This document shows, one piece after another, positions 45,514 to 64,000 of a DNA stretch of 64,000 bases (position 1 is the first letter of the stretch; every line of letters starts with the position of its first letter). The DNA is from an uncultured Acidobacteriota bacterium. Lineage in GTDB: Bacteria; Acidobacteriota; Thermoanaerobaculia; UBA5066; Gp7-AA6. A program made the position numbers and the translations under genes. Location: assembly GCA_963824165.1 (NCBI GenBank), contig CAWGOM010000002.1, forward strand, positions 744,286 to 808,285. Reading direction: 5' to 3'. The notes beneath the pieces were generated by a model. That model was not told the origin of the DNA, did no database searches, and saw nothing but the letters and a program-made list of their open reading frames with translations.

Positions 45514-46311
45514 GTGTTCCTGGCCCCGCTTGCCCGCGCGATCGCGCAACGCGCGCTCGTCCTCGCGCTGACGCGCAGGGAGCTCAACGCCCGCTACCGC
45601 GGCGGCGCGCTCGGCTTCCTCTGGTCGCTCGTCAACCCGCTCCTGCTCCTCCTGGTGTACGCGACGGTGTTTCGCCTCGTCTTCGAGCCGCGCGCGGACG
45701 TCCGGCCCTACGCGCTCTTCCTCTTCTCCGGGGTCCTCGTGTGGGGGTTCGTCTCCGCGGCCCTGAACGACGCGGTCGAGACCTTCCGGGCGAACGGCCC
45801 GCTCCTGCGCAAGACGACGGTGGCGCCCGAGGTGTTTCCGGCCGCGTGCGTGGGAGCGCGGCTCGCGCACCTGCTGCTCGCCCTGCCCGTGCTCGCCGCG
45901 GCGATCGGGTATGCCGCGTTCCGGGGGAGCGTCCGGCCGGGCCTCGCCCTCCTCGAGTTTCCGGCGGTGCTGCTGCTTCTCGCCCTGACCGTCTTCGGGA
46001 TCGCGCTCGCGGTCTCGGCCCTGGCGGTGCACTTCGGCGACGTGCGCGACGTGGTCGGAAACCTCCTGACGCTGGCCTTCTTCGTGACGCCGGTCCTCTA
46101 TCCCGTCGAGGCCGTGCCGGAGCGCTTCCGCGGGCTGCTGCGCTTCAACCCGTTCGCGACCTTCTTCGCCGGCATCCACGACACGCTCTTCTACTTTCGG
46201 CCGGTGGGCGCCGCGGACTGGGCCTGGATGGCCGGGACGGCCGCGGTGGCGCTCGCGGCGGGCGGCTGGATCTTCGAGCGCTTGCGCGACTCGCTGGCGG
46301 AGAACGCGTGA
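45514..46311 (+). CDS. wzm: Glycan-export ABC permease (Wzm/TagG-like)
   Basis: RELNARYRGGALGFLWSLVNPL, F.DV, FFVTPVLYP, NP. Confidence 0.9.
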   Translation: MFLAPLARAIAQRALVLALTRRELNARYRGGALGFLWSLVNPLLLLLVYATVFRLVFEPRADVRPYALFLFSGVLVWGFVSAALNDAVETFRANGPLLRKTTVAPEVFPAACVGARLAHLLLALPVLAAAIGYAAFRGSVRPGLALLEFPAVLLLLALTVFGIALAVSALAVHFGDVRDVVGNLLTLAFFVTPVLYPVEAVPERFRGLLRFNPFATFFAGIHDTLFYFRPVGAADWAWMAGTAAVALAAGGWIFERLRDSLAENA

Positions 46312-47534
46312 GCGCCCCGGCGGTCGCCGTCCGCGGCGTGACGAAAGTGTATCGGCGCTACGGCCGGCGCCCGCACGGCACGCTCAAGTCGGCGCTGCTC
46401 GCCGGCGGCCGGGCGCCGGCGATGCCGGGCGGGGTCACCGCGCTCGAGCACGTCTCCTTCGAGGTGGCGCCTGGAGAGACGCTCGGCGTCGTCGGAGCCA
46501 ACGGCTCGGGCAAGTCGACGCTCCTGAAGATTCTCGCCGGGATCGTCCGCCCGACGCAGGGCTCGATCGAAGTGCAGGGGCGCCTGGCGGCGCTCCTCGA
46601 GCTCGGCGCGGGTTTCCACCCGGAGATCTCGGGACGCGAGAACGTCGAGATCACCGGCCTGCTCCTGGGGCTGACCCGGAAGGAGGTCGCGGCGCGCTTC
46701 GACGACATCGTGCGGTTTGCGGGCGTCGAGGCGTTCCTGGACGCTCCCGTCAAGACGTACTCCTCCGGCATGGCCGTGCGCCTGGGGTTCGCGATCGCCG
46801 CGCACAGCGATCCCGACGTCCTGCTCGTCGACGAGGTGCTCGCCGTCGGCGACGAGGCTTTCTCGCACCGGGCGCTCGAGAAGTTCTCGGAGTTCGAGCG
46901 CGCGGGCAAGACGCTCGTCGTCGTGTCGCACGACCTGTCGCTCGTCGAACGCCGCTGCCGCCGCGCGATCTGGCTCGAGGGCGGCCGGATCGCGGCCGAC
47001 GGCCCCGCCCCGGAGACCGTGTCCCGCTACCTCGAGCGCGTGGCCGTCGAAGAGGGAGAGCGGCGGCTCGCGGAGGCCGGGGCGGGAGGGCGCATCGGGT
47101 CCGGCGTGGCGACGATCGCCGGCGTGCGCCTGCTCGACGGGAGCGGCCGCCCGGCGGGCCGCCTGCGCGCGGGCGAGCCCGCGTCGCTCGAAATGACGGT
47201 GCGCGCGGACGAGCCGTTGACCGATTTCGTGTTCGGCTTTCGCGTGACGACCGTGTCCGGGGTCATGGTCCTCGGCACCAACACCGAGCTCGAGGGTTTC
47301 CGTCCCCGCGAGCTCCGGGGCGAGGCGCGCGTGACGCTCGCGCTGCCCTCGCTCGATCTGGCGCCCGGCGTCTACCGCCTCGACGCCGCGATCCACGCCC
47401 GCGACGGCGCCCCCTACGACGCGCGCGCCGACGTCCTGCGCTTCGAGGTGACCTCGGACCGCGCGGGCGCCGGCGTCTGGGGGCCGCCGCGCCGCTGGGA
47501 TTTCTCCGGCGGCGTGCGGTGGGACGGGTCGTGA
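46308..47534 (+). CDS. wzt: Glycan-export ABC ATPase with C-terminal carbohydrate-binding domain (Wzt)
   Basis: GANGSGKST, LLELGAGFHPE.SGREN, KTYSSGM..RL.F, DEVLAVGD, C-terminal beta domain with L.PG.Y. Confidence 0.92.
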   Translation: MSAPAVAVRGVTKVYRRYGRRPHGTLKSALLAGGRAPAMPGGVTALEHVSFEVAPGETLGVVGANGSGKSTLLKILAGIVRPTQGSIEVQGRLAALLELGAGFHPEISGRENVEITGLLLGLTRKEVAARFDDIVRFAGVEAFLDAPVKTYSSGMAVRLGFAIAAHSDPDVLLVDEVLAVGDEAFSHRALEKFSEFERAGKTLVVVSHDLSLVERRCRRAIWLEGGRIAADGPAPETVSRYLERVAVEEGERRLAEAGAGGRIGSGVATIAGVRLLDGSGRPAGRLRAGEPASLEMTVRADEPLTDFVFGFRVTTVSGVMVLGTNTELEGFRPRELRGEARVTLALPSLDLAPGVYRLDAAIHARDGAPYDARADVLRFEVTSDRAGAGVWGPPRRWDFSGGVRWDGS

Positions 47535-47550
47535 CGGGCGCGTCCCGGCG

Positions 47551-48621
47551 TTGAGCGCGCGCCTTCGGGCGGGACTCCTCGCCGCCGGTTTCCTCGCGGC
47601 GCTCGCCGCGCGCCTGGCGCTGCTCCACGCCTTTCCGGGAAACTACGACACCGAGTCCTACGACATCGTCGCGGACGTCGTCACGCGGGGCGGCGACCCG
47701 TACCGCGAGACGACCCGGTACAACTATTCGCCCCTGTGGGCCTTCGTGATCGCGGGAGCCGGGGCGGCGGCGCGGACGTCGGGCGCCTCGCCGACCTCGG
47801 TCCTCGGCCTGCTGTTGCTCGCGGGCGACGTCGCGACGGCGGTCCTCGTGTACCGGCTCGCCCGTCGGCGCCGGTCCGGCGCGGCCTCGGCGCTGGCGGC
47901 CCTCTTCTTCTTCGCCAACCCCGTCTCGATCCTGGTCTCGAGCCATCACCTCCAGTTCGACGGGCTCGCCGTTCTCTTCCTCGTCGCCGCGGTGCTTCTC
48001 TCGGATCGCGGGCGCGACCTGCCGGCCGCGGCGGCGCTCGCGGTTTCCCTCCTCGTCAAGCACGTCACGGCGTTCCATCCGCTGCTCTTCCGCCGCCGGC
48101 CGGGTTGGCGCGGCCTCCTTCCGGCGACTCTTCCCTACGCCGCCTTCGCGGCCTCGTTCCTGCCCTACGCCGCGTCGTGGCGGGAGATCCTCGAGAACGT
48201 GCTTCTCTATCGCGGCGTGACGGGCAACTACGGCATCGAGGCCATGGTGCTCCTGCCCGGCGTGCCCGACTGGGCGCCGGTCCCGATCTTCCTCGCGGCG
48301 GTGGCGGTCGCGGTGTTCTTCCTGCGGCGCGAAGAGCTCGTGCGCGCGAGCCTGCTCCTCTTTCTCGTCGTGCTCGTCTTCGCGCCGGGCTTCGGACGCC
48401 AGTACTGCGTCTGGCCGATCGCCCTCGGCGCGATCTTCGCGGGTCCGGGGTTCTTCCTCTACAGCTTCGTCGCCGCCGCGTTCCTCGTGGGTGCCCTCTT
48501 TCCCGGAGCGCGGGAGATCCTGCCGCTGCCCGGCTGGTACGGGCCGTGGTGGGCCGCGATCGCGTGGCTGCTGTGGGAGCTTCGCGGTCCGCGGGTTAAG
48601 ATCCCGGCGAACTCGCGATGA
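47551..48621 (+). CDS. GT-C-fold membrane glycosyltransferase (GT87/PIG-M-like)
   Basis: First loop NYDTESY...GDPY..TRYNYSPLW, FFANP.SI..S..H.QFD, GFG.QY..W. Confidence 0.7.
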   Translation: MSARLRAGLLAAGFLAALAARLALLHAFPGNYDTESYDIVADVVTRGGDPYRETTRYNYSPLWAFVIAGAGAAARTSGASPTSVLGLLLLAGDVATAVLVYRLARRRRSGAASALAALFFFANPVSILVSSHHLQFDGLAVLFLVAAVLLSDRGRDLPAAAALAVSLLVKHVTAFHPLLFRRRPGWRGLLPATLPYAAFAASFLPYAASWREILENVLLYRGVTGNYGIEAMVLLPGVPDWAPVPIFLAAVAVAVFFLRREELVRASLLLFLVVLVFAPGFGRQYCVWPIALGAIFAGPGFFLYSFVAAAFLVGALFPGAREILPLPGWYGPWWAAIAWLLWELRGPRVKIPANSR

Positions 48622-49565
48622 AAGTCTCGATCGTCGTCCCGGTCTTCAACGAGGAAGGCAACCTGCCGGAGCTGCTGACGCGGCTTTCCGCCGTCATGGA
48701 GGGCACCGGGCGGCCCTACGAGCTCGTGTTCGTCGACGACGGCAGCCGCGACCGGTCGCTGGAGATCCTCAAGGCGGCTTCGCGCGAGCGGCCCGAAACC
48801 GTCCGGGTCCTCGAGCTCGCGCGCAACTTCGGGCAGCACCAGGCGATCCTGGCCGCCTTCGAGAACGTGACCGGCGACGTCGTGGTGACGCTCGACGCCG
48901 ACCTGCAGAATCCTCCCGAGGAGATCCCGAAGCTCCTCGCGAAGTTCGACGAGGGATACGACGTCGTCGGCGGCGTGCGCCAGGACCGCCAGGACTCCTT
49001 CCTGCGCCGGGCGGCCTCGCGCCTCGTCAATCGCGCCACGACCTTCATCACGCGGATGAAGCTCTCGGACTTCGGCTGCATGCTGCGCGCATACTCGAAG
49101 GAGGTCGTCGAGGAGATCAACCGGTGCGACGAGGCCTCGACCTTCATCCCGGCGCTCGGCCAGAGCTTCGCGCGGCGGCCCACGGAGATCCAGGTCGCGC
49201 ACGCCGCGCGGCGGCACGGAGCGTCGAACTACTCGCTCTACCGGCTGATCCGCCTGAACTTCGACCTGATGACCGGTTTCTCCCTCGTGCCGCTCCAGGT
49301 CTTCGGCCTGATGGGCACGGCCGTCGCCTTCGGCGGCGTCGCCTTCGGCCTCTTCCTCTTCGTGCGCCGGCTGGTGGTCGGCGCCGAGGTCGAGGGGGTC
49401 TTCACGCTCTTCGCCATCCTCTTCACGCTTCTCGGGATCGCGATGGCGGGGCTCGGCCTCGTCGGCGAATACGTCGGGCGGATCTATCTCCAGGTCCGCG
49501 GCCGGCCGCGGTTCCGCGTGCGCCAGGTCCACGGAGGCGCCCGGCCGCCGGGCCCGGACGCATGA
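48618..49565 (+). CDS. arnC: Undecaprenyl-phosphate (Ara4FN) glycosyltransferase, GT2
   Basis: [41 protein letters not shown], two C-terminal TMs, GEYVGRIY. Confidence 0.85.
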
Positions 49566-50473
49566 CGGCGCCGCGCATCGCGGTCTTCGCCTACTCGGGG
49601 ACCGGCCACGCCTGCCTCGACGTTCTCCTCAGGCGCGGCCGCCGACCCGTCCTCGTCGCGACGCATCGCGACCTGCCCGAAGAGGCGCGGTGGTTCCCGA
49701 GCGTCGCGGAGCTCGCGCGCGCCCACGGGATCGAGCCGGTCGTCATCGACAACCCGCTCGACCCCGCGGCGATCACGCGGGTGCGGATCGCCGCGCCGGA
49801 CCTGCTCTTCTCCTTCTACTACCGCACTCTCCTGCCGGCGGAGATGCTCGCGGTCCCGCGGCTCGGGGCCTTCAACATGCACGGCTCGCTCCTGCCGAAG
49901 TACCGCGGCCGCGCGCCGGTCAACTGGGCGGTCTTGAAGGGCGAGACGCGCACCGGCGCGACGCTCCACGTCATGACCGAGCGGGCGGACCGGGGCGCGA
50001 TCGTCGACCAGGAAGCCGTGCCGATCGGCTCCGACGACACCGCGATCGACGTCCAGAAGCGGGTGACCGCGGCCGCGGCGGCGATCCTCGAGCGACGCCT
50101 CGAGGAGCTCGAGGCCGGCTCCGCGAAGGCGACGCCTCAGGACGAGACGCGGGCGACCCGCTTCGGGCGGCGGCGGCCCGAGGACGGGCGCATCGACTGG
50201 AGCCGGCCGGCGAAGGAAGTCCACGACCTCGTCCGGGCCGTGACCCACCCGTACCCCGGGGCCTTCACGGACCTGTTCGGCGCGAAGACCTTCGTGTGGC
50301 GCAGCCGGCTGCCGGGCCTGGCGGCGCACGATACGTTCCCCGGCCAGGTCCGCGGCGAGGCCGGCCGGCTCCACGTCGCCTGCGGCGACGACCGGTACGT
50401 GGAGCTGCTGTCCCTCCAGACGGAGGGCGGCGAGGAGACGGACGCGGCGCGGTTTCTCGCGGCGAGGGGGTAG
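49562..50473 (+). CDS. UDP-Ara4N formyltransferase (stand-alone ArnA N-terminal domain)
   Basis: [53 protein letters not shown]. Confidence 0.88.
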
Positions 50474-50475
50474 GG

Positions 50476-51507
50476 ATGCGGATCCTGATTCTCGGCGTCA
50501 ACGGCTTCATCGGCAACGCGCTGACGGAGCGGGTCCTCCAGACGACCGACTGGCACGTCTCGGGACTCGACATCGGCTCGGACAAGATCGCGCCGTTCCT
50601 CGACAACCCGCGCTTCACGTACCTCGAGGGCGACATCGCCATCAACAAGGAGTGGATCGAGTACCAGGTCAAGAAGTGCGACGTGGTGCTGCCGCTCGTC
50701 GCGATCGCGACCCCCTCGGCCTACGTGCGCGAGCCCCTGGCGGTCTTCGAGCTCGACTTCGAGGAGAACCTCCGGATCGTCAAGCAGGCGGTCCGCTACG
50801 CGAAGCGCGTCGTGTTTCCGTCCACCTCCGAGGTCTACGGGATGTGCCCCGACGCCGAGTTCGACGAGGACTCCTCGCCGCTCGTCTACGGCCCGATCCA
50901 GAAGCAGCGCTGGATCTACTCCTGCTCCAAGCAGCTCCTGGACCGCGTGATCTGGGCGTACGGAACGAAGGGGCTGCAGTTCACGCTCTTCCGGCCGTTC
51001 AACTGGTTCGGGCCCCACCTCGACGACATCGATTCCCCCAAGGAGGGCTCGAGCCGGGTGCTGACGCAGTTCCTCCACAACATCCTGTACGGCGAGCCCA
51101 TCAAGCTGGTCGACGGCGGGACGCAGCGGCGGTCCTTCACCTACATCTCGGACGGCATCGACTGCCTGATGAAGATCCTCGAGAACCGCGCCGGCGCGGC
51201 CGACGGGGGGATCTTCAACATCGGCAACCCCGCCAACGACCTGTCGATCCGCGAGCTCGCGCAGCGCATGGTCGCGGCGGTCGGCGCCCATCCCGGATTC
51301 GAGGCCCTCGCGGCGAAGGCGGCGCTGACCGACGTGGCTTCCGGCGCGTACTACGGCCCGGGTTACCAGGACATGCTCACGCGGGTGCCGTCGATCCGGC
51401 GCGCGCGGCAGATTCTCGGCTGGGAGCCGCAGGTCTCCCTCGACGAGGGCATCCGGCGGACCCTCGACTTCTACCTGACGCGGCGCCGTTCCGGGGTCAG
51501 GCCTTGA
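50476..51507 (+). CDS. arnA: UDP-glucuronic acid oxidase/decarboxylase (stand-alone ArnA C-terminal domain)
   Basis: [62 protein letters not shown]. Confidence 0.92.
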
Positions 51508-51592
51508 ATCTGTACTCACATGACGCCGGTCGAGCGCCTGGTTCGCGGCTCTGTTTCTTGAACGACCGAGTACAAAATCAAGGCCTGACCCC
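51493..51592. mobile_element. 100-bp MITE-like element with 25-bp terminal inverted repeats
   Basis: GGGGTCAGGCCTTGAATCTGTACTC ... GAGTACAAAATCAAGGCCTGACCCC (23/25 complementary); more AT-rich than the flanks. Confidence 0.7.
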
Positions 51593-52513
51593 GTGATCGG
51601 TCGCGTCGCCCTCAAGGTCGACTGCGACACCGACGAGGGCACCCGCGACGGCGTGCCGCGCCTGCTCGCGATGTTCGCGGCGCGGGGGATCCGGGCGACG
51701 TTCTTCTTCACGCTCGGGCCCGACCGGTCGGGCCTCGCCGTCCGGCGGATCTTCACCCGCAAGGGCTTCCTGAAGAAGATGCTGCGGTCCCGCGCGCCGT
51801 CGCTCTACGGCTGGAGGACGATGCTCTCGGGGACGCTCCTTCCGGCGCCGATGATCGGCGAGCGCTGCGCGGGCCAGATGCGCGCGGCGGCGAAGGCCGG
51901 GCACGGCACCGGCGTCCACGGCTGGGACCACGTCCGCTGGCACGACGAGCTTCCCGCGATGAGCGCGGAGGAGATCCGGGCCGACTACGGCCGCGCGCAC
52001 GCCGAGTACCTCCGGATCTTCGGCGTGCCCGCCCGCGCGAGCGCCGCGCCCGGGTGGACGGCCGACGCGCGGTCCCTCGAGGCGCAGGAGGAACGCTCGC
52101 TCCTCTTCGCGTCCGACACGCGGGGCGGCTCCTACTTTTTTCCCGAGGCGGGCGGCCGCGTGTTCCGGACCCTCGAGATCCCCACGACCCTGCCGACCCT
52201 CGACGAAACCCTCGCCTGGCCGGAGCTTTCGTCGGACGAAGACCAGCGGGCGTTCTTCCGCAAGGCGGCGAGCGGCACGCACGTGCACACGATCCACGCC
52301 GAGGTCGAGGGGCGGTCCAAGGCGCCGCTCTTCGAGGGGATCCTCGACGACTGGCTCGCGGACGGGGTCGCGTTCCCGCTCCTGTCGGATCTCGCGCGGG
52401 AGGTGCTCGCGCACCACGACGCGATCCCGGTGCGCCGGCTCACCACGACGACGCTGCCCGGGCGCGCCGGGACCGTGGCGACGGGGTGGCCCGAGACGTC
52501 CGGCTCGGCCTGA
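51593..52513 (+). CDS. arnD: Undecaprenyl-P-Ara4FN deformylase (polysaccharide deacetylase family)
   Basis: LKVDCDT..GTRDGVP.L, F.LGPD, HGWDH..W, AAPGW, PTTLPTLDE, TIHAEVEG. Confidence 0.85.
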   Translation: MIGRVALKVDCDTDEGTRDGVPRLLAMFAARGIRATFFFTLGPDRSGLAVRRIFTRKGFLKKMLRSRAPSLYGWRTMLSGTLLPAPMIGERCAGQMRAAAKAGHGTGVHGWDHVRWHDELPAMSAEEIRADYGRAHAEYLRIFGVPARASAAPGWTADARSLEAQEERSLLFASDTRGGSYFFPEAGGRVFRTLEIPTTLPTLDETLAWPELSSDEDQRAFFRKAASGTHVHTIHAEVEGRSKAPLFEGILDDWLADGVAFPLLSDLAREVLAHHDAIPVRRLTTTTLPGRAGTVATGWPETSGSA

Positions 52514-52544
52514 GCCGGTGTCGAGGAGTATCCTCTCGAAAGAC

Positions 52545-56040: not shown

Positions 56041-56068
56041 CGCGAAGAGTGTACAGTGAGCGCCACGC

Positions 56069-57688
56069 ATGATCGACGCGCAAACCCGCGACGCCACGCG
56101 CGCGGCCACGGCGGTCCTCTTCGCGTTCGCCTTCTCGGCCGTCTTCTTCTCGGGTCTCTTTCCGCCCTTTTCCAACCCGAACGAGCTCTCGCGCCTGGAG
56201 GCGGTGGTGGCCGCCGTGGATCACGGCACGTTCGCGATCGACGAGGTGATCCCCCGCCTCGGCGACCACGAGGACAAGGCCGTCTCCGGAGACCGGACCT
56301 ACTCCAACAAGGCTCCGGGGCTCGCGTTCGCGGCCGTCCCCTTCTACGCGCTCTACCGGCTCGCGCTGCCCGAGCCCGGCTCGCCCGCGGCGCCCGTCTT
56401 CCCGTGGCTGCGCGTCCTCACGGTGACCGCGGCGGCCATTCTCGCGCTCGTGCGGCTGCGGCGGCGCCTGGGCCTTCAGATCGAGCCCGCCGCCGTCGCG
56501 CTCCTCTTCTGCGCGGCGGCGCTCGGGACGCCGTACCTCTTCTACGCCCGGTCCTTCTTCGCTCACGCGTGGACCGCGGCGCTCCTCTACCTGGCGTGGG
56601 ACGGCCTGATGACGTCGGACGAGCCCGGCCGTCGACGCGGCGGCTGGCTGGGGCTCGTCGCAGGGCTTCTCGCCGGCTGGGCCGCGATCTCGGAGTACAC
56701 GGTTGCGCCGCTCGCCGTCCTGCTCGCGCTGAGGTCCGCCGCCGGCGGCTCGTGGCGGCGGCTGGCGGCGTTCGCGGCCGGCCTCGCTCTGCCGCTCGCG
56801 CTTCTCGCGGCCTACAACGCGGCCTGCTTCGGCTCGCCGTGGATCCTGTCGTCGGCGCGGGAGGCGTACCCCGCCTACGGCGATCTCGCCTCGAAGGGAC
56901 TCTTCGGCTTCGGCGCGCCGAGCCTCGCCGTCGCGCTGCGATACCTCGTCTCTCCCGAGCGCGGGGTCCTGCTCTTCTCGCCGTTCCTGCTGTGGTGCGT
57001 GCCGGGCTTCTTCCGCTGGTGGCGCTCGGGCCGCGGCCGCGCGGACTGCCTGCTCGCGGCGGCGGCGACGCTGGGCTTCTTCGTGGTCATGACCGGTTAC
57101 CCGAACTGGCACGGGGGCTGGTCCCTCGGGAGCCGTTACCTGCTGCCGATCCTCTTCTTCCCGATCGTGGCCGCGGGCCATGCCCTGGCGACGCCGCTGT
57201 CGCGCGGCCTCTTCGCCGCGGCCGTCGTCTTCTCGGTCGCGAGCCAGTTCCTGCTGTCCTCGACCTTTCCGCACTTTCCGGACAACGTTCCCTGGCCCGC
57301 GGCGACGGGCTCCGCCTGGTTCCTCGCTCGCGGCTGGACGGCGCCGACGCTGGCGGGCATCTCCGGAATCGCGGGTCTCCTGCTTCCGGCCGCCGCCTTC
57401 CTCGCCGCCCTGGCCCTCTCCATCCGGGCGTCCGGCCCGCTCGCGCCGCGCGCCTCCGTGGCCGCGTTGCTCGGAGCGGCGCCGCTCGTCCTTCTGTTGC
57501 TGCGCCCGCCCGAGCTCGTCTACGGGGCGCGGCTGTGGCGGGCGGCGATGTTCGGGGCGTACTCGGGCCGCGACCCCGCGCGCGAGGAGCTCAAGGCCGT
57601 CGCGCTCGAGGCGGCGACCGACGGGCAGCGGCGCCAGGCCCTCGGGGCGTGGCGGATCTACGGGCCGCCGCCCGAACCGGCTCCCTGA
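56069..57688 (+). CDS. Polytopic membrane protein, probable GT-C glycosyltransferase
   Basis: First loop NPNE.SR...G.F.ID...DKA...YSNKAPG, W.GGWS.G.RYL. Confidence 0.62.
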   Translation: MIDAQTRDATRAATAVLFAFAFSAVFFSGLFPPFSNPNELSRLEAVVAAVDHGTFAIDEVIPRLGDHEDKAVSGDRTYSNKAPGLAFAAVPFYALYRLALPEPGSPAAPVFPWLRVLTVTAAAILALVRLRRRLGLQIEPAAVALLFCAAALGTPYLFYARSFFAHAWTAALLYLAWDGLMTSDEPGRRRGGWLGLVAGLLAGWAAISEYTVAPLAVLLALRSAAGGSWRRLAAFAAGLALPLALLAAYNAACFGSPWILSSAREAYPAYGDLASKGLFGFGAPSLAVALRYLVSPERGVLLFSPFLLWCVPGFFRWWRSGRGRADCLLAAAATLGFFVVMTGYPNWHGGWSLGSRYLLPILFFPIVAAGHALATPLSRGLFAAAVVFSVASQFLLSSTFPHFPDNVPWPAATGSAWFLARGWTAPTLAGISGIAGLLLPAAAFLAALALSIRASGPLAPRASVAALLGAAPLVLLLLRPPELVYGARLWRAAMFGAYSGRDPAREELKAVALEAATDGQRRQALGAWRIYGPPPEPAP

Positions 57689-59697
57689 GCGGGGTCGACG
57701 ATCTCGTAGACCGCCCACCGGGGCACCCAGCGGCCCCCGCGGCGGATCGCGGTCTGCGAGCGGTGCAGCAGCCGGACGCTCGAGAGCGGCGGGATCTCGA
57801 GGCCCGGGACGCTGCCGCCGCGCCCTTCGAAGTCGTAGAGGCGCGACTGCATGGTCGCGAAGTACTCGGGGGTGGGCACCTGGCCGCCGGGCGTGTCGCG
57901 GATCAGAGGCGGCCGGCCGAGGTACGAGGCGTAGTCGTTCATGCGGGGCACCAGGTCCGTCGCGACGATCCAGCGCGCGCGGTGCTTTCGCGCGATCGCC
58001 AGCGCCTCCTCCTCGCTTCCCGCGAGGAAGAAGCGGATCGAGTCGAGAAAGCCGTACCCGAAGTTGTTGGCGACGACCGGCAGCCCGGCCTCGTAGAGGA
58101 GGAGGTGCCCCATCGACCAGGGCGCGATCACCGCTGAAGCGCGGGCGAGCGCGGCGGGGAACGGCGGCGGCCCCAGCAGCGCCGGGTCGTAGGCGTCCAC
58201 CGCGTGCGGCAGCTCGGCGCGCATCCAGTCGAGGGTCTCGAAGAGGTCGGAGCCCGGCACGTGAACGCTCGCGAGCTCGGCCGAGAGCCCCTGGCGCATC
58301 GGCAGCGCGAGAACGAGGCCGACGGCGACCGCGGCCGGCGCCCGAAGGAGGCGGCCGGCCGAGGGCACGAGCCGCGGCAGGCGGTTCGCGGCGGCCCTCG
58401 CCGCCTCGACGAGGGCGAGCGCCGAGAGCACCGCCGCGTAGTGGACGTTCAGGCGCTGCGAGAGAGCGAGGAAGAGGACGACCGCGCCCCAGACCGCCAG
58501 GCCGACGTTGACGCCCGGACGAAAGCCCCGCACGGCCCGGCGCGCCCAGAGGAAGATCGCGACGGGGGTCAGGAAGAACGCCGCGGATAGCTGCTGCCAG
58601 GCGAGCGCCGGCCCGTCGGCGAAGAGCGGCCGGGCCTCGAAGATCCCCTTGAGCCAGTCCTTCGGGTAGGAGACGTAGCCGCCCTCGCCCGCCACTTCCT
58701 GCGTCGCCCCGGCGACGTAGCCGATTCCGTTGGTCAGGCCCGCCAGGAGCGGCCGCGCGAAGGGGAGCGTGGCCACGGCGACGGCGGCGACGACGAGAAG
58801 CGTTGTCACGAGCTCGCGGCGCCCGGCCCGCCGCTTCGCCGCGCGCGCGAGGAGGGCCAGCGCGGCCGTGCCTCCGCAGAGCGCCGCCAGAAAGAGCGGC
58901 TGAAAGAAACCGAACGACACGTAGGTCAGCGGCGGGGACAGCCAGCCGAGCCAGGCGGCCGTCGCCGCGCCCGTGACGGCGGCCGGCAGGCCCAGCGTCA
59001 GGACCGCTGCGCGCAGCACGCTGCGCGGGAGCAGGATCGATTCGAGGAAGACCGCGAGAGCGAAAACCGCTCCCAGGAAAACCGCGCCCTGCCAGGCGAG
59101 GACGGCGACCGCGAGAGCGAGCCCCGCCGCCGCCTCCCGCCAGGCCCGGCCGCGCGCTTCCGGATGCTCGCGGCTGCCGAGGAAGAGCACGAGGGCGAGC
59201 AGGCTGCAGAAGGACTCCGCCGCGTGCTGGTCCGTGTGCCCGTACTGCGTCCAGAGGATGTGGGCCGGACAGACCGCGAGAAACGCGGCCGCGGCCACGC
59301 CGGCGGCCGCGCCGTGCAGGCGAAACGCGAGCAGCCCCGCGAGCGCGATCGCGCCGGCCGCGAGCACGACCGGCACCCACGCCGCACCGCGCGCGACGGC
59401 GTCCGTCGAGGCCCCCGGGCCGTCCGCCAGCCGCGCCGGCGCCGCGAGGGCCAGGTCGAAGAGCGGCGGCCAGATCGGGACGCCGCCCTCGGGAAAGTTC
59501 ATGAGCGGATCGAAGACGATCGTGCGCGGGAAATTCGCCGCGGCGAACCGGGCGCGGCGCAGGTGATAGGCGGAGTCCGAGTCGAACGGCCGCAGGACGC
59601 CTCCGGCCGTGACCTGCGCGCGCGTGTGGAGCCGCAGGGCGACGCCGGCGGCGACGGCCGCGCACACGCCGAGCGCCAACGCGAGTCGACGAGTCAC
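57658..59697 (-). CDS. STT3-family oligosaccharyltransferase, archaeal AglB-like
   Basis: DSDSAYHLRR..NFP...FDP..NFP.G..WPPLFD, GHTDQHAAE, GIFEARPL, QRLNVHY, APWSMGH, ANNFG, FFLA.SEEEA. Confidence 0.8.
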   Translation of the reverse strand: MTRRLALALGVCAAVAAGVALRLHTRAQVTAGGVLRPFDSDSAYHLRRARFAAANFPRTIVFDPLMNFPEGGVPIWPPLFDLALAAPARLADGPGASTDAVARGAAWVPVVLAAGAIALAGLLAFRLHGAAAGVAAAAFLAVCPAHILWTQYGHTDQHAAESFCSLLALVLFLGSREHPEARGRAWREAAAGLALAVAVLAWQGAVFLGAVFALAVFLESILLPRSVLRAAVLTLGLPAAVTGAATAAWLGWLSPPLTYVSFGFFQPLFLAALCGGTAALALLARAAKRRAGRRELVTTLLVVAAVAVATLPFARPLLAGLTNGIGYVAGATQEVAGEGGYVSYPKDWLKGIFEARPLFADGPALAWQQLSAAFFLTPVAIFLWARRAVRGFRPGVNVGLAVWGAVVLFLALSQRLNVHYAAVLSALALVEAARAAANRLPRLVPSAGRLLRAPAAVAVGLVLALPMRQGLSAELASVHVPGSDLFETLDWMRAELPHAVDAYDPALLGPPPFPAALARASAVIAPWSMGHLLLYEAGLPVVANNFGYGFLDSIRFFLAGSEEEALAIARKHRARWIVATDLVPRMNDYASYLGRPPLIRDTPGGQVPTPEYFATMQSRLYDFEGRGGSVPGLEIPPLSSVRLLHRSQTAIRRGGRWVPRWAVYEIVDPAQGAGSGGGP

Positions 59698-59764
59698 GCC
59701 CGTGATTATGAGACCGTTCCCTCCGGCTCGCCGCGTCCGCTTCGCGTATCATTCGCCCAACGCC

Positions 59765-60463
59765 GTGAAGCTCTCCGTCCTGATTCCCGTCTACAACGAG
59801 GAGCGAACGATCGACGAGATCCTTCGCCTCGTCACGAGCGAGCCGACGGAGAAGGAAGTCGTCGTCGTCGACGACGGCTCGACCGACGGCACCCGCGAGA
59901 AGCTTCGCGCCTGGGACGGCCGGAACGGCGTGCGGGTGATCCTCCAGCCGGGTAACTTCGGCAAGGGTCGGGCCGTGGCGGCGGCGCTCGCCGCGGCCCG
60001 CGGCGAGATTCTCCTGATCCAGGACGCGGACCTCGAGTACGACCCGGCCGAGTACCCGATCCTGCTGAAGCCGATCGAGTCCGGCCGCGCCGACGTGGTC
60101 TTCGGGTCCCGATTCATCGGAAGCTCCGAGCACCGCGTCCAGAACTTCTGGCACCAGCAGGGCAACCGGCTGTTGACGCTCATCTCCAACGTGGTGACGG
60201 GCTTGAACCTCTCCGACATGGCGACCTGCTACAAGGCGTTCCACCGGCGCGTGGTGCCGTCGCTCGACCTCCAGTCGCCGGGCTTCGGCATCGACGCGGA
60301 GATCACGGCCAAGGTCGCCCGGGGCGGATTCCGGATCTTCGAGGTGCCGGTGTCCTACTTCGGCCGCTCCCAGGCGGAGGGCAAGAAGATCCGGCTGAAG
60401 GACGGGTTCGCGGCGCTGGTGTCGCTGGCGCGGCACTCGTTCGGGGCGGGCCCGAAGCGTTGA
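59765..60463 (+). CDS. GT2 polyprenyl-phosphate glycosyltransferase (DPM1-like)
   Basis: IPVYNEE, VDDGSTDG, N.GKG.A, IQDADLEYDP, GSRF, DM.TCYK, GKKI...DG. Confidence 0.9.
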   Translation: MKLSVLIPVYNEERTIDEILRLVTSEPTEKEVVVVDDGSTDGTREKLRAWDGRNGVRVILQPGNFGKGRAVAAALAAARGEILLIQDADLEYDPAEYPILLKPIESGRADVVFGSRFIGSSEHRVQNFWHQQGNRLLTLISNVVTGLNLSDMATCYKAFHRRVVPSLDLQSPGFGIDAEITAKVARGGFRIFEVPVSYFGRSQAEGKKIRLKDGFAALVSLARHSFGAGPKR

Positions 60464-62181
60464 GGCCGGCCCTCGGGGTCCTGGCCGCTCTCGCGCTCGC
60501 GGCGGCGGCGGTGTTCCTGGTGCGCGACCACACGCGCGAGGACGCCCTGTCGGCCGACGAGCCGATCCACATCCTCTCCGGCTACTTCGCCGTCGCGAGC
60601 CGGACGGCGATCGTCAACATCGAGCACCCGCCGCTGATGAAGGCGCTCTCCGGCCTCGCGCTCGCGGCCCTCCCGCTCGCCCCGCCCCCGGAGAAGGTCC
60701 CGATGGGGAACCTGTTCCTCGGCTACGGTCCGGACTTCTTCTATCGCAACCGCGTCCCGCCGGACCGGATCATCGCCGCCGCGCGCGCGCCGTTCCTCCT
60801 GGTCCTCGCCGGCCTGCTGCTCGTCGTCTTCTTCGCGGCCCGCTCGCGGTACGGCGTGGCGCCGGCCCTCTTCGCGACGGCGCTCCTCGCCTTCGACCCC
60901 AACCTCCTCGCCCACGCCGGGGTCGTCCACACGGACCTGGGGGCCGCGCTGGCGTTTCTCGCGACGGTGCTCGCCTGGGAGGCGGCGCGCGAGCGCCCGA
61001 CCGCCCTCCGGCTCGCCGGCGCCGCGGCGTGCCTGGGGCTGGCGCTCGTCACGAAGTTCTCGGCCGTGTACCTGGCGCCGATCCTGCTGCTCCAGACGCT
61101 TCTCGCCGCGCGGCGCGAGGGGTCGGGCCGGCGGGTCCTCGCGAGCCTCGGGCGCCTCGCCGCGGTCGTGGCCGGGGCGCTCCTCGTCGTCGTCGCGGTG
61201 TACGCGTCGGTCACGACGGGGATGGACCGGGCCGACCAGAAGACGATCATCCGCGAAAAGGTCGGCGCCCTCGGGAAGGCGCCGGCGCTGGCCGAGAGGA
61301 TCGTCGCCGTTTCCGACGTCTCGGCGCCGCTCGCCCATTACCTCGGAGGCCTGGCTTCGGTCGCGCGGCAGAACGCCGTGGGCGGCGGGATCACGTACCT
61401 GAACGGACGCGTCTCCACCGACGGCTTTCCCGAGTACTTCTTCGTGGCCTTCGCGGTGAAGTCGACCCTCGCGTTCCTCGCCGTGGCTCTCGCCGTCCTC
61501 GCGGCCTCGCTCCTGCGGCGGGCCGGGTTCGCGGAGGAGCTGCGCCTCTTCGGCCTCCCGGTCGTCGTGCTCTTCCTCGCGTCGATCGGCACGACGTACA
61601 ACATCGGGATCCGGCACCTCCTTCCGGTGTACCCGTTTCTCGCGCTCTTCGGCGCCGCGCTCTTCGCGCGGGCCTGGGCGCGCCGGTCCGAGTCGCTCGC
61701 GCGGCGCGCCGCCGCCGGGGTCTGGGCGGCCCTGCCGCTGCTCTCGGCGGTCGAGCTCGCGCGGATCCACCCCCACGAGCTGTCCTACTTCAACCCGCTC
61801 GCCGGCGGGCCGGAAGGCGGCGCCCGGATCCTGACCGATTCCAACGTCGACTGGGGGCTCGACCTGCGGCGCCTCCGGACGGAGCTCGCGCGGCGAGGCG
61901 TCAAGCGCGAGGACCTGATGGTCTCGTACTTCGGAGGCGACAACGTGTCGTACCGGCTGGGCGTCCCCGACTTCTCGGCGCTGCCGGTCGTGCGCGGGCG
62001 CCTGCTGGCGATCTCGGTCTTCCTGCTGACGGCGGGACCGGAATTTTCCGCGTATCATGGCGACGAGACGATGGCGGAGGCGCAGCGCGGGCTGCAGCGC
62101 GTGATCGCGCGCTCGAGGCCGGTCGGCCGCATCGGACATTCGATCTATCTCTTCGAGCTGCCGGAGCCAGAAACGCCGTGA
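60460..62181 (+). CDS. GT-C-fold glycosyltransferase (ArnT/PMT_2-like)
   Basis: ADEP.H..SG, NIEHPPL.K, HTD, TKFS, NIGIRHLLP, L.YFN.L.GG, DSNVDWG. Confidence 0.78.
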   Translation: MRPALGVLAALALAAAAVFLVRDHTREDALSADEPIHILSGYFAVASRTAIVNIEHPPLMKALSGLALAALPLAPPPEKVPMGNLFLGYGPDFFYRNRVPPDRIIAAARAPFLLVLAGLLLVVFFAARSRYGVAPALFATALLAFDPNLLAHAGVVHTDLGAALAFLATVLAWEAARERPTALRLAGAAACLGLALVTKFSAVYLAPILLLQTLLAARREGSGRRVLASLGRLAAVVAGALLVVVAVYASVTTGMDRADQKTIIREKVGALGKAPALAERIVAVSDVSAPLAHYLGGLASVARQNAVGGGITYLNGRVSTDGFPEYFFVAFAVKSTLAFLAVALAVLAASLLRRAGFAEELRLFGLPVVVLFLASIGTTYNIGIRHLLPVYPFLALFGAALFARAWARRSESLARRAAAGVWAALPLLSAVELARIHPHELSYFNPLAGGPEGGARILTDSNVDWGLDLRRLRTELARRGVKREDLMVSYFGGDNVSYRLGVPDFSALPVVRGRLLAISVFLLTAGPEFSAYHGDETMAEAQRGLQRVIARSRPVGRIGHSIYLFELPEPETP

Positions 62182-63572
62182 AGCTGTCGGTCGTGATGCC
62201 CGCCTACAACGAGTCGAAGACGATCCGCGAGATCGTGCGGCGCGTGCAGGCCGTGCCGGTCGAGAAGGAGATCGTCATCGTCGACGACGGCTCGACGGAC
62301 GGAACGCGGGACATCCTGCGGGAGCTCGACGGGAAGGACGGCGTTCGCGTCGTCTTCCAGCCCTTCAACCAGGGCAAGGGGGCGGCCGTCTCCGCCGGGT
62401 TCCGGCACGCGACGGGGGACGTCGTGATCGTGCAGGACGCGGACCTCGAGTACGACCCGATGGAGTATCCGAAGCTGCTCGCCCCGATCGAGCAGGGGCA
62501 CGCCGACGTGGTGTACGGCTCGCGCTTCCTCGGGGGCGGGGCCCGGCGGGTCCTCTACTTCTGGCACACCGTCGGAAATCGCTTCCTCACGCTCGCCTCG
62601 AACATGTTCACCAACCTGAACCTGACGGACATGGAGACCTGCTACAAGATGTTCCGGCGCGAGGTCGTCTCGTCGATGACGATCGAGTCGCGCCGCTTCG
62701 GCATCGAGCCGGAGATCACGGCGAAGGTCGCCCGCCGCGGCTACCGGATCTACGAGGTCCCGATCTCCTACTACGGCCGCACCTACGAGGAAGGCAAGAA
62801 GATCGGCTGGAAGGACGCGGTCTCCGCGCTCTGGACGATCGCGAAGCACTCGATGCGCGAGACCGAGGACCCGAAGAACGTCGGCCACGTCACCCTCGCG
62901 CGCATGGGCAAGCTCGACGCGTACAACCGCTGGCTCGCAGACCGCTTCGAGCGCGCTCTCGGTTCCCGGGTGCTCGAGATCGGCGCCGGGTTCGGCAACA
63001 TGACGCGGTTCATGGTCGGGCGCGAGCTCGTCGTGGCCTCGGATCTGGACCCGGTCGCCCTCGAGTACCTGCGCGGGGCCTTCCGCGAAGACCCGCGCGT
63101 GCGCGTGGCCTCCTACCGGTTCCCGCTGGCGGAGGCCGAGAAGGCCGAGATCCGGTCGCTTCGCGTCGACACCGTCGTCTGCCTGAACGTGCTCGAGCAC
63201 ATCGCGGAGGACGTGGCGACGCTCGCGGATCTCCACTCCCTGATCGCGCCGGGCGGACGGCTGATCCTCATCGTGCCGGCCCTGCAGCGTCTCTTCGGCA
63301 CGCTCGACGAGCACCTTCACCACGTGCGCCGCTACGAGAAGGCGGAGCTCGAGGACAAGGTCCGCGCGGCCGGGTTCGTGCTCGAGGACGTGCGGTTCCT
63401 GAATCGGCCCGGCATCCTCGGCTGGTGGATCAACGGCAAGCTCCTGCGCCGCCGCGTTCTTCCCGCCAGCCAGCTCGCCGCCTTCAAGCTCCTGCTGCCG
63501 ATCCTGAGGCGCGAGGAGAAGAATCCGCCGAGCGTCGGGATGTCCCTGCTCGCGATCGCCCGAAAGCCCTAG
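62178..63572 (+). CDS. GT2 polyprenyl-phosphate glycosyltransferase fused to a class I SAM methyltransferase
   Basis: N-terminal VQDADLEYDP, DMETCYK; C-terminal VLEIGAGFG, NVLEHI.ED, PGG..I..VPA. Confidence 0.88.
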   Translation: MKLSVVMPAYNESKTIREIVRRVQAVPVEKEIVIVDDGSTDGTRDILRELDGKDGVRVVFQPFNQGKGAAVSAGFRHATGDVVIVQDADLEYDPMEYPKLLAPIEQGHADVVYGSRFLGGGARRVLYFWHTVGNRFLTLASNMFTNLNLTDMETCYKMFRREVVSSMTIESRRFGIEPEITAKVARRGYRIYEVPISYYGRTYEEGKKIGWKDAVSALWTIAKHSMRETEDPKNVGHVTLARMGKLDAYNRWLADRFERALGSRVLEIGAGFGNMTRFMVGRELVVASDLDPVALEYLRGAFREDPRVRVASYRFPLAEAEKAEIRSLRVDTVVCLNVLEHIAEDVATLADLHSLIAPGGRLILIVPALQRLFGTLDEHLHHVRRYEKAELEDKVRAAGFVLEDVRFLNRPGILGWWINGKLLRRRVLPASQLAAFKLLLPILRREEKNPPSVGMSLLAIARKP

Positions 63573-64000
63573 GGCCCGGGCCGCGTCCAGAGCAGGACGA
63601 GCGCGTTCGGGCTCCTCGACAGCTCGCGCACCGCGCCCCCTGGCAGCGCCGACAGCAGCTCCGGCGTGGCATACGCGGGAGGCAGGACGACGTAGAGTCG
63701 TCCGCCGGGCGCGAGCCCGCCAGCCGCGACGGCGAGCGCCTGCCGCTCGCCCTCGGCGGGAAGGCCCGGCACGAACCACCCCGGGTGCGCGGCGAGCTCC
63801 ACGGGCAGCGCATGGACGGTCACGGCCGCCGGCTGCCGGCCGGCTTCGCGGCGCATCGGCAGATAGAACCCGCCCGCCGCCGCGACCGCGTCCGCCGGCC
63901 TCGCGGTGCGGGAGACCGCCGCCGCGATGTCGGACGCCTCGGTCGAGGGGGATGGCCCGAGGGCGACCGCAGCGGTCGCCGCCGCCCCGAGCAGCACCGC
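63569..64000 (-). CDS. C-terminal part of a membrane protein (starts beyond the window)
   Basis: ORF 63569..>63997 with a TM helix followed by a soluble domain; convergent overlap with the GT2-MTase stop. Confidence 0.55.
   Translation of the reverse strand, partial: AVLLGAAATAAVALGPSPSTEASDIAAAVSRTARPADAVAAAGGFYLPMRREAGRQPAAVTVHALPVELAAHPGWFVPGLPAEGERQALAVAAGGLAPGGRLYVVLPPAYATPELLSALPGGAVRELSRSPNALVLLWTRPGP

Follow-up and report, generated by a model that had tools for sequence, protein, structure and literature searches.

A conserved acidobacterial gene cluster encodes an AglB-like STT3 protein lacking the WWD motif together with candidate GT-C enzymes and lipid-linked sugar synthases

Introduction

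N-glycosylation in Haloferax volcanii employs AglB, AglJ-type dolichyl-phosphate hexose synthases, a methyltransferase and a GT-C enzyme that depends on dolichyl-phosphate mannose. The glycan of the Campylobacter pgl pathway is built on undecaprenyl diphosphate in the cytoplasm by soluble glycosyltransferases (GTs) and is flipped by PglK. Here we describe a gene cluster, which includes a gene for an AglB-like STT3 protein, found in a 64,000-nucleotide stretch of DNA (G000:C2:744286-808285; hereafter ‘the window’) from a metagenome-assembled genome (MAG) of an uncultured member of the Thermoanaerobaculia (Acidobacteriota) from soil and freshwater. The MAG is 68% complete, and the contig extends 15 kb beyond the end of the window. 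The STT3 family is treated as the signature of N-x-S/T glycosylation. In excerpts of PMC7226087, the WWD motif, which forms hydrogen bonds to the Ser/Thr at sequon position +2, is called conserved in all three domains. The STT3 protein encoded in the window has lost this motif, and its gene lies within a set of genes for candidate GT-C proteins, lipid-linked sugar synthases and glycan export whose order is kept in related genomes.

Like archaeal N-glycosylation, this system combines a methyltransferase with GT-C proteins of the kind that use lipid-phosphate sugars; its STT3 protein is closest to AglB by sequence, and both neighboring GT2 proteins match AglJ best. Unlike its archaeal counterpart, it is found in a diderm host that makes lipid A, its STT3 protein carries PWSxGH, about a dozen putative GT-C proteins are present rather than one, an Arn module and Wzm/Wzt form part of the cluster, cytoplasmic GTs for elongation are lacking, and the scores all lie below cut-offs. 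A single-subunit STT3-family enzyme encoded in a bacterial glycan biosynthesis cluster is also the hallmark shared with Campylobacter PglB. However, PglB has WWDYG where this protein does not, and the soluble GTs and the initiating enzyme are not in the cluster.

The enterobacterial Arn locus (PmrHFIJKLM) is echoed by colinear genes corresponding to arnC, the formyltransferase and decarboxylase parts of arnA, and arnD. The two differ in that ArnA is split here, that no arnB, recognizable arnT or arnE/F is in the cluster, and that the module is embedded among GT-C and STT3 genes and is optional among relatives. In the three-component systems (GtrA/B/C, CsbB/GtcA/YfhO, and the GT136 pentofuranose system excerpted from PMC11127046), a GT2 protein makes a polyprenyl-phosphate sugar and a GT-C protein acts outside the cytoplasm, and YfhO members also occur in our cluster. 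In contrast to those systems, there are three synthases for about a dozen candidate GT-C proteins, STT3 is included and no GtrA-type flippase was found; so large a set of genes points to the assembly of a glycan more than to the decoration of side branches.

A GT-C battery that would use lipid-phosphate monosaccharides on the far side of the membrane recalls mycobacterial lipomannan, lipoarabinomannan and arabinan synthesis (PimE/GT87, Mpt, Emb, Aft), as well as the endoplasmic reticulum (ER) series from ALG3/9/12/6/8/10 to oligosaccharyltransferase (OST). Structural matches to AftD, Emb, ArnT, ALG12 and ALG9 and Pfam matches to GT87 and ALG6 are shared with these systems; TM-scores are only 0.35-0.5, and the GT87 score is marginal (26.9 bits versus 25). 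Mycobacteria belong to a different phylum with a different envelope and are without the STT3-like end enzyme, whereas the ER pathway differs from our locus in that no genes for synthesis of a lipid-diphosphate (lipid-PP) core are adjacent here. Finally, in the pilin arabinosylation system of Pseudomonas aeruginosa, the GT-C gene for TfpW resides beside the major pilin gene, and the donors are lipid-linked monosaccharides (excerpt of bioRxiv 10.1101/2020.04.19.049825). A YfhO-like gene is likewise beside the pilin genes in our genome, but these pilin genes are 12-19 kb from STT3; the likeness is one of gene arrangement.

Results

An AglB-like STT3 protein that has lost the WWD motif

The STT3 gene (57658-59697, minus strand) encodes a protein of 679 amino acids (aa) in which P-W-S-M-G-H replaces WWDYG. 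An initial annotation of the window, made from sequence alone, had proposed an AglB-like STT3 at this location, and this assignment holds. The protein scores 45.1 bits with the Pfam model STT3 (PF02516; cut-off 24.5, E 1.3e-11), and a profile made from 24 relatives matches Archaeoglobus fulgidus AglB (3waj) over residues 15-611 with E 4.8e-23. The NCBIfam model for archaeal STT3 (TIGR04154) gives E 1.6e-64, with 218.6 bits versus a cut-off of 450. AglB is present among the PDB sequence matches of the STT3 profile at E <= 0.01, and no PglB chains are.

Residues D156 and H158, each at least 90% conserved in the 24 relatives, align with ‘NDHH’ of AglB. I352 and E354, invariant in this set, align with ‘TIAE’ of 3waj, which includes the loop-5 glutamate and represents what we take to be the motif named TIXE. 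D41, also invariant, aligns with the first-loop aspartate (the D of ‘NDP’) of A. fulgidus AglB, a residue (D47 in AglB, D56 in PglB) whose catalytic role is described in excerpts of PMC7226087. P-W-S-M-G-H aligns with W-W-D-Y-G-N/H of three A. fulgidus AglB chains, P-W-S-L-G-H being placed on W-W-D-Y-G-H in the profile alignment, and P526, W527, G530 and H531 are invariant. The alignment with AglB stops at D581, and the sequence that follows, L-V-P-R-M-N-D-Y, has no clear D-x-x-K or M-x-x-I.

The retained catalytic aspartate and loop-5 glutamate argue that this STT3 protein would still act on an amide acceptor, and the lost WWD argues that it would not read N-x-S/T. Transfer to protein at a sequon therefore should not simply be assumed, because the WWD reader is gone, and we rejected a canonical N-x-S/T OST as the default assignment for the same reason.

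An exhaustive search of a library of 1.8 billion proteins yielded 1988 cluster representatives with E <= 0.001, of which 990 reached E <= 1e-10 and 77 reached E <= 1e-30. Motifs were tallied for the 103 representatives of at least 560 aa among the best 150. WWDxG is carried by 12 of these, xWDxG by 17, xW(non-D)xG by 66 and some other sequence by 8; D41 is kept in 98, DxH/N in 95 and E354 in 98. One distant WWD-less group bears Myxococcota and Deltaproteobacteria MAG names. By this comparison of motifs, the protein is a member of a large WWD-less branch that is apparently uncharacterized. Given that only 12 of the 103 representatives have WWDxG, this large and mostly bacterial branch probably has an undescribed acceptor rule. 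An excerpt of Lombard 2016 (PMC4973528) mentions only ‘a few bacterial homologues’ within the euryarchaeal clade, and our search of the open-access literature found no paper that deals with STT3 homologs from Acidobacteria or Thermoanaerobaculia, nor any on bacterial STT3 proteins that are without WWD.

Gene order is conserved within one order-level lineage

STT3 loci were drawn from one-genome-per-species contigs as the best 80 of 107 stretches, and synteny was counted on the 44 loci that are at least 21 kb long. All 80 loci come from Thermoanaerobaculia or Acidobacteriota MAGs, and it is such names that relatives at 60-86% identity bear. Recurrence in the 44 loci is high for the YfhO-like gene (40), the gene for a 539-aa GT-C protein (42), the AglJ-like GT2 gene (43), the PMT_2-like gene (42), the gene for a GT2-methyltransferase fusion (42), the last GT-C candidate (43) and a pair of YfhO-like genes further downstream (42 and 40). 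The order and orientation of this core are constant: YfhO-like, GT-C, STT3, GT2, PMT_2-like, GT2-methyltransferase, GT-C and then two YfhO-like genes. Conservation of the neighborhood had been named in the initial annotation as a check on the proposed system, and gene order is indeed kept in 40-44 of the 44 related loci. Since these loci belong to other species, the cluster is more than a product of chance.

Formyltransferase, decarboxylase and ArnD genes are present in 26, 27 and 29 of the 44 loci, respectively. The count for ArnC (43) is inflated because of cross-matches to other GT2 proteins (median identity 35%), and the counts for Wzm (4), Wzt (6) and pilins (4) are uninformative because these genes are mostly outside the 10-kb flank. 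Variation is found between the YfhO-like gene and wzt, where the Arn genes are present or absent and where there are zero to three GT87-like copies. In loci L031, L045, L048 and L055, which are without Arn genes, 381-aa or GT87-like genes run straight to wzt and the rest of the cluster is unchanged, and other loci carry the Arn module without the 381-aa or GT87-like genes. With L021, in which nothing was seen beyond the YfhO-like gene, these four loci that reach wzt make up five genomes with no Arn genes in the fetched flank. An ArnD-like gene is located elsewhere in two of the five (42-44% identity) and was not found with this query in the other three; our own genome has the cluster copy only. 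The Arn module is therefore optional among relatives, and variability of the kind seen between the YfhO-like gene and wzt is, by analogy, what surface-glycan loci typically exhibit.

The arrangement extends to a sister family whose STT3 proteins share 34-38% identity with ours by tblastn. There, the order is M20 peptidase, YfhO-like, GT2-methyltransferase, PMT_2-like, STT3 and YfhO-like, followed by ArnD, the C-terminal part of ArnA (ArnA-C), formyltransferase and ArnC, and then by Wzt, Wzm and an ATP-binding cassette (ABC) ATPase. The GT2-methyltransferase is 63% identical in the sister family and is among the best-conserved proteins of the cluster, with a median identity of 80.3% (42 of 44 loci) that is second only to that of the decarboxylase (83.7%).

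In an even sample of 401 genomes of the phylum, which includes our own and the unpublished genome G029, there are 14 STT3 matches at E <= 1e-20. These comprise four of four genomes in our own family, three of three in the sister family of the same order (~40% identity), none in other sampled families of the class, and six weak matches scattered elsewhere. A class-wide distribution was rejected on the basis of these zero matches, and the pattern as a whole indicates that the system belongs to one order-level lineage rather than to the class or phylum.

Distant STT3 relatives in five Acidobacteriota genomes (22-28% tblastn identity) share no neighbors with the cluster. One distant STT3 genome has two small N-methyl pilin-like genes 3 kb away, behind a PNPase gene, which we took to be a coincidence. 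Two loci, L050 and L070, come from one MAG with two STT3 copies, of which one is in the usual cluster and the other has no cluster genes within 10 kb. The STT3 matches at G291:C2:318541-320532 and G362:C2:774018-776045 have one in-frame stop each (TAG and TGA, respectively), which may reflect true disruption, sequence error or an alignment that runs past the gene end.

About a dozen candidate GT-C proteins

Sequence and structural models point to about a dozen GT-C proteins in the cluster and its surroundings: five YfhO-like, three or four PMT_2/ArnT-like and two GT87/PIG-V-like. The ‘GT-C battery’ of the initial annotation is upheld by modeled folds for two of the proteins and by family or profile links for the others. 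That the membrane proteins might not have a GT-C fold was examined with AlphaFold, Foldseek and hhalign, and the two folds recovered are those of GT-C proteins.

The best model is that of the 539-aa protein (56069-57688, plus strand), which was predicted from a 31-sequence alignment with pLDDT 89 and pTM 0.92. Its fold is ArnT-like, with ArnT (5ezm) as the best Foldseek match (E 4.4e-6, TM-score 0.45), followed by EmbC/A/B, ALG12, AglB and ALG9. N38-E39, H67-E68-D69 and K81-A-P-G are invariant. The second modeled protein is encoded by the YfhO-like gene on the minus strand at 53626-56040. The start of this gene is most likely the ATG at 56040 rather than 56175, giving a product of 804 aa with a C-terminal, beta-rich periplasmic domain. 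The model (pLDDT 77, pTM 0.80) matches AftD best in Foldseek (E 7.6e-8), then ArnT (1.2e-5) and EmbA/B. This protein aligns in hhalign with three downstream YfhO-like paralogs at 99.3-99.9% probability; for the fourth YfhO-like protein, the alignment is a single sequence. With the Pfam YfhO model it scores only 11.3 bits (gathering score 28.5). That cut-off is passed by the products of 36470-38437 (47.6 bits) and L002:11245-13458 (37.2 bits), over the final ~50-70 profile positions only.

Four further proteins are assigned by profile, motif or topology. The GT87/ALG6-like protein (47551-48621, plus strand; 356 aa, with ~10 hydrophobic segments) scores 26.9 bits with Pfam GT87, which is marginal against a cut-off of 25, and 26 bits with Alg6_Alg8 (cut-off 25). 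A 381-aa membrane protein (52518-53663, plus strand) is a GT87/PIG-V-like candidate that aligns with this GT87-like protein in hhalign at 85.5% probability (E 5.6e-6). It matches the NCBIfam AZOBR_p60025 family below the cut-off (E 7.7e-10), and in the clusters closest to it in the Atlas, 11% of members have GT87 or 53% have Mannosyl_trans2/PIG-V. The PMT_2-type protein (60460-62181, plus strand; 573 aa) scores 28.4 bits with Pfam PMT_2 (cut-off 26.1) and has invariant D33-E34 and H56-P-P; hhalign relates it to STT3 at 70.3% probability. The last candidate, a membrane protein of ~475 aa, is encoded on the minus strand from 63569 to the end of the window at 64000 (its C-terminal part) and on to window-equivalent position 64996. 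Invariant W36, D38 and E39 (W-x-D-E) follow its first hydrophobic helix, and G62-P63 (G-P-P) is also invariant. This protein has no Pfam match and no PDB sequence match, and from its sequence we infer W-x-D-E to be the GT-C first-loop signature. Pfam searches at E <= 1 with the 381-aa, 539-aa and 475-aa proteins gave nothing useful.

The reading frame of the 475-aa candidate has no ATG, GTG or TTG ahead of the conserved first helix (L002:2985-2999, window-equivalent 64985-64999, minus strand). It opens with a stop codon, a G/S/R codon and ATC in 32 of the 38 relatives counted (12 commonest patterns), with an AGGA-like box 6 nucleotides (nt) upstream. This shared opening suggests a conserved ATC (Ile) start codon.

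Three putative lipid-linked sugar synthases and an export pair

The initial annotation had called for several GT2 proteins that charge polyprenyl phosphate, and there are three, of the ArnC/AglJ/DPM1 type, all encoded on the plus strand. The ArnC-like protein (48618-49565) is a GT2 with C-terminal membrane helices (hydrophobic segments at 220-264) and a candidate polyprenyl-phosphate transferase for 4-deoxy-4-formamido-arabinose (Ara4FN). It matches NCBIfam NF007986 with E 6.2e-111 (370.4 bits, cut-off 529) and also Pfam Glycos_transf_2. The AglJ/DPM1-like GT2 (59765-60463), a candidate polyprenyl-phosphate hexose synthase, matches Glycos_transf_2 (E 2.1e-34) and, below the cut-off, the NCBIfam AglJ model TIGR04182 (E 3e-40). 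Its start is most likely 59765 because the Pfam domain starts at residue 56 of the longer frame. The third protein (62178-63572; 464 aa) is an AglJ/DPM1-like GT2 fused to an S-adenosylmethionine-dependent methyltransferase (Glycos_transf_2 E 8.4e-41, Methyltransf_12 E 5.4e-13), and its best NCBIfam match is again the AglJ model, below the cut-off (E 7.8e-37).

Downstream of the ArnC-like gene are three further plus-strand genes. A stand-alone formyltransferase of the ArnA N-terminal-domain type (49562-50473) scores 366.5 bits with NF005414 (cut-off 316) and matches the ArnA model over residues 3-285 (E 8.7e-82). A UDP-glucuronate oxidative decarboxylase of the ArnA C-terminal-domain type, that is, a UDP-4-keto-pentose/UDP-xylose synthase (50476-51507), scores 561.4 bits with NF008872 (cut-off 294) and matches ArnA residues 317-649 (E 2.4e-153). 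An ArnD-like deformylase (51593-52513) matches NF011923 (E 6e-66; 222.7 bits, cut-off 382) and Pfam Polysacc_deac_1. With both ArnA halves above curated cut-offs, the predicted donor module for Ara4FN and 4-amino-4-deoxy-arabinose (Ara4N) is present. For the ArnC-like and ArnD-like proteins, the Arn models are the best matches by far and the genes are colinear with arnA, yet the scores are below cut-offs. No cluster protein matches the ArnT equivalog in NCBIfam. Nor could an ArnT be named among the PMT_2-like, 475-aa and 539-aa proteins, whose profiles have no PDB sequence match at E <= 1.

The export pair begins the cluster, also on the plus strand. Wzm (45514-46311; 265 aa) is an ABC-2 permease (ABC2_membrane E 3.4e-17) that matches the NCBIfam galactan/Wzm permease model below its cut-off (E 4.5e-18), and Wzt (46308-47534; 408 aa) is an ABC ATPase that carries a carbohydrate-binding Wzt_C domain at its C terminus (Wzt_C E 1.9e-25, ABC_tran E 5.6e-22). 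The NCBIfam equivalog scores of both are below cut-offs, and Pfam identifies the combination of an ABC-2 permease with a Wzt_C ATPase.

Neither Pfam nor NCBIfam reveals a cytoplasmic elongating GT encoded in the cluster or elsewhere on this contig, nor does the cluster contain an unassigned small membrane open reading frame or a MATE or Wzx gene. The phosphoglycosyltransferase genes, two Bac_transf and a single Glycos_transf_4, are located on contigs C15, C17 and C1. A DegT aminotransferase gene at G000:C17:452592-453760, which adjoins a Bac_transf gene, is matched in four pieces, suggesting frameshifts or assembly errors.

Gene layout, flanking genes and pilins

The G+C content of the window is ~72%, and genes were therefore called from third-position GC and checked with Pfam and NCBIfam. 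The 15 genes listed in the initial annotation are all present in the order given there. The range that it assigned to them, 45514-64000, stands for the genes and not for the extent of the cluster, which overruns both ends. Spacers are 0-85 nt, and gene ends often overlap. The YfhO-like gene at 53626-56040, the STT3 gene at 57658-59697 and the last partial gene from 63569 onward are on the minus strand, each single amid plus-strand genes, and this alternation across 53626-65018 is also kept in relatives. Where genes converge in this region, their ends overlap by 4-38 nt; where they diverge, the starts are 28, 67 and ~21 nt apart (56040/56069, 59697/59765 and 64996/65018). Starts so close to each other imply that the promoters are inside neighboring coding sequence or that the mRNAs are leaderless.

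The 15 kb past position 64000 contain the remainder of the last gene, genes for YfhO-like proteins of 774 and 780 aa, an M20 peptidase gene and three tandem pilin genes, after which come a fourth YfhO-like gene and genes for a prepilin peptidase, a histidine kinase and a weak PMT_2-like match. The three type IV pilin-like genes (L002:9200-11165, window-equivalent 71200-73165) are near-identical and encode proteins with N_methyl and T2SSG domains. Their leaders carry G/FTLIE, the first two mature sequences are one residue apart, and relatives have one to three copies. In all 13 genomes of the family that were examined (our own, seven long-contig relatives and five further loci), tandem pilin genes are found at a distance of 12-19 kb from STT3. 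In our own genome, a YfhO-like gene is situated between the pilin genes and the prepilin peptidase gene.

On the other side of the cluster, a MacB/FtsX-type permease and an ABC ATPase (42181-45422, minus strand; Pfam FtsX, MacB_PCD and ABC_tran) are encoded divergently from wzm, and such a pair adjoins Wzm in L031, L045, L048, L055 and the sister family. The segment 41168-45422 as a whole encodes a lipocalin protein of the CrtC type in addition to the permease, which is MacB-like with a double FtsX, and the ATPase, all divergent from wzm. Further upstream is another gene for a YfhO-like membrane protein (36470-38437, plus strand; Pfam YfhO 47.6 bits against a cut-off of 28.5, PTPS_related), whose inclusion in the system is uncertain. 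The PMT_2 matches of the genome include a group at 110-137 kb of contig C7 and several on C17, in the vicinity of Wzy_C, DegT and Bac_transf genes.

Discussion

We tentatively favor the view, to which we assign somewhat less than an even chance, that the cluster encodes a single pathway: a lineage-specific extracytoplasmic glycan assembly that ends in protein-directed transfer by a non-canonical OST. Three cytoplasm-facing GT2 proteins would load polyprenyl phosphate with single sugars. One of these, the ArnC-like protein, would be fed by the split ArnA and ArnD and would yield lipid-linked Ara4FN and then Ara4N; the other two chargers would be the AglJ/DPM1-like GT2 and the AglJ/DPM1-like GT2-methyltransferase fusion. 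The lipid-linked sugars would then move to the periplasmic face of the membrane, where about a dozen GT-C enzymes may extend the glycan by one linkage each time. Wzm/Wzt, with its glycan-end-binding domain, would export the lipid-linked precursor, and the AglB-derived STT3 protein would make the final transfer to an amide or another nucleophile on proteins without reading N-x-S/T. Among candidate acceptors, the tandem type IV pilins encoded nearby would be the first to consider. Gene content, the GT-C folds of two proteins, motifs, synteny and distribution are what the data show; we infer which sugars are donated, in what order the steps occur, what Wzm/Wzt does and, most of all, what the acceptor is.

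With no cytoplasmic elongating GT in the cluster, the logic of this pathway differs from that of Campylobacter pgl, as the initial annotation had stated, and by analogy the assembly appears closer to that of the ER lumen, archaeal Agl and mycobacterial arabinomannan synthesis. A flipped lipid-PP core and its en-bloc transfer, which were also part of that proposal, were inferred there rather than seen: no phosphoglycosyltransferase is encoded in or near the cluster, and the AglJ-like GT2 proteins would equally fit monophosphate-linked donors.

Several observations weigh against the single-pathway view. With WWD replaced, N-glycosylation of proteins can no longer be taken as the default for this STT3 protein. 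No initiating phosphoglycosyltransferase gene is present on the contig of the cluster, including 40-64 kb of the window and the 15 kb beyond it; no DegT-family gene that could represent arnB is in the cluster, the best one being on contig C17; and no GtrA-type flippase (PF04138) was found in the 68%-complete genome. The scores of the ArnC-like, ArnD-like, AglJ-like and STT3 proteins are all below NCBIfam curated cut-offs. LpxC is present, indicating that lipid A is made, and there are three Wzy_C/WaaL-family genes elsewhere in the genome, making lipopolysaccharide (LPS) an available acceptor. The genome has 24 PMT_2 matches (13 above the cut-off), and richness in GT-C proteins is therefore not unique to the cluster. 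The pilins are equivocal as well. One genome of the sister family has them on the STT3 contig at a distance of 50 kb, and a fragmented one has them on a separate contig. In an alignment of 24 pilin sequences, N-L-S/T is present in 15 and N-G-S/T in 11, the latter swapping with D-G-T. The two to three sequons per pilin are about what composition would lead one to expect, by our estimate, and make no case for enrichment. With sequons only partly conserved, pilin glycosylation is neither supported nor excluded.

Some of these points fit a scheme in which no protein is glycosylated and the cluster serves to decorate LPS or a surface polysaccharide, an explanation that we regard as a serious one even though we doubt that it is correct. 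Wzm/Wzt would export a polymer made elsewhere, consistent with the Wzt_C glycan-binding domain of Wzt, and the GT2 and GT-C proteins would constitute stacked three-component systems that add hexose, a methylated sugar and Ara4N to this polymer or to lipid A and core. Arn is the classic pathway for modification of lipid A and core, LpxC is present as noted, and the Arn module and GT87-like copies vary as serotype determinants do. Post-polymerization modification of O antigen by GT2 and GT-C proteins is widespread according to excerpts of PMC11127046, and YfhO members are known in teichoic-acid glycosylation (PMC5836110, in excerpt). The WWD-less STT3 protein would then be one more GT-C enzyme directed to glycans or lipids, or a ligase-like enzyme, given that loss of WWD takes away the sole STT3 sequence feature tied to a peptide sequon. 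However, the protein keeps the first-loop aspartate and the loop-5 glutamate, which hold the acceptor carboxamide in OSTs (PMC7226087, in excerpt). Furthermore, the cluster has neither an initiating enzyme nor a cytoplasmic GT that would build a polymer, the WaaL-family genes are on another contig, the ten to twelve putative GT-C enzymes far exceed those of known decoration systems, and pilin genes adjoin the cluster throughout the family.

It is quite unlikely, in our judgment, that the locus is instead a patchwork of independent functions, with arn serving lipid A, Wzm/Wzt serving O antigen, STT3 working with its own GT2, and assorted GT-C genes and a pilin locus nearby. A patchwork would account for the four loci in which Arn is absent and the rest unchanged, for the ArnD-like gene found elsewhere in two of five Arn-less genomes and not in three, for the position of Wzm/Wzt at the edge of the cluster, for a genome rich in GT-C genes overall, for the second, solitary STT3 copy in the MAG of L050, and for distant Acidobacteriota STT3 relatives without these neighbors. 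It is difficult to reconcile with an order and orientation kept in 40-44 of 44 loci and, including Arn and Wzt/Wzm, across two families whose STT3 proteins have diverged to 34-38% identity. The overlapping gene ends and divergent spacers of 21-67 nt also speak against independence, as do three lipid-sugar synthases with no other consumer of their products in the neighborhood.

A more specific form of the single-pathway view would be bacterial N-glycosylation of a third kind, in which an AglB-derived OST, having lost the otherwise universal WWD, acts at the end of a wholly periplasmic, ER-lumen-like assembly line. About a dozen GT-C enzymes would there build the glycan from polyprenyl-phosphate sugars that include Ara4N and a methylated sugar, and the OST would place it on envelope proteins, type IV pilins among them, at sites other than N-x-S/T. 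We consider this version unlikely. If it were true, WWD-less enzymes would be active in many bacteria, such as Myxococcota and other Acidobacteriota.

Every part of the cluster is drawn from known enzyme classes. Our search of the open-access literature found no description of the combination seen here, namely a WWD-less AglB-type STT3 protein, about a dozen candidate GT-C proteins, three lipid-sugar synthases, Arn, Wzm/Wzt and pilins in an acidobacterial diderm. What endures of the overall interpretation first put forward is a conserved cluster of GT2, GT-C, Arn and STT3 genes. Transfer at sequons cannot be taken for granted, an en-bloc lipid-PP core stays hypothetical, and the system is confined to one order-level lineage. 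The cluster offers a conserved setting in which to find the acceptor rule of such enzymes, since it holds donor genes, adjacent candidate acceptors and natural variants with and without Arn. If the acceptor is protein, the range of routes by which bacteria are known to glycosylate proteins would grow, and new enzymes for glycoengineering would become available; if it is a glycan or lipid, an OST scaffold would have been put to another use. In both cases, a diderm outside the Actinobacteria that assembles a glycan in the periplasm with about a dozen GT-C enzymes would be unusual.

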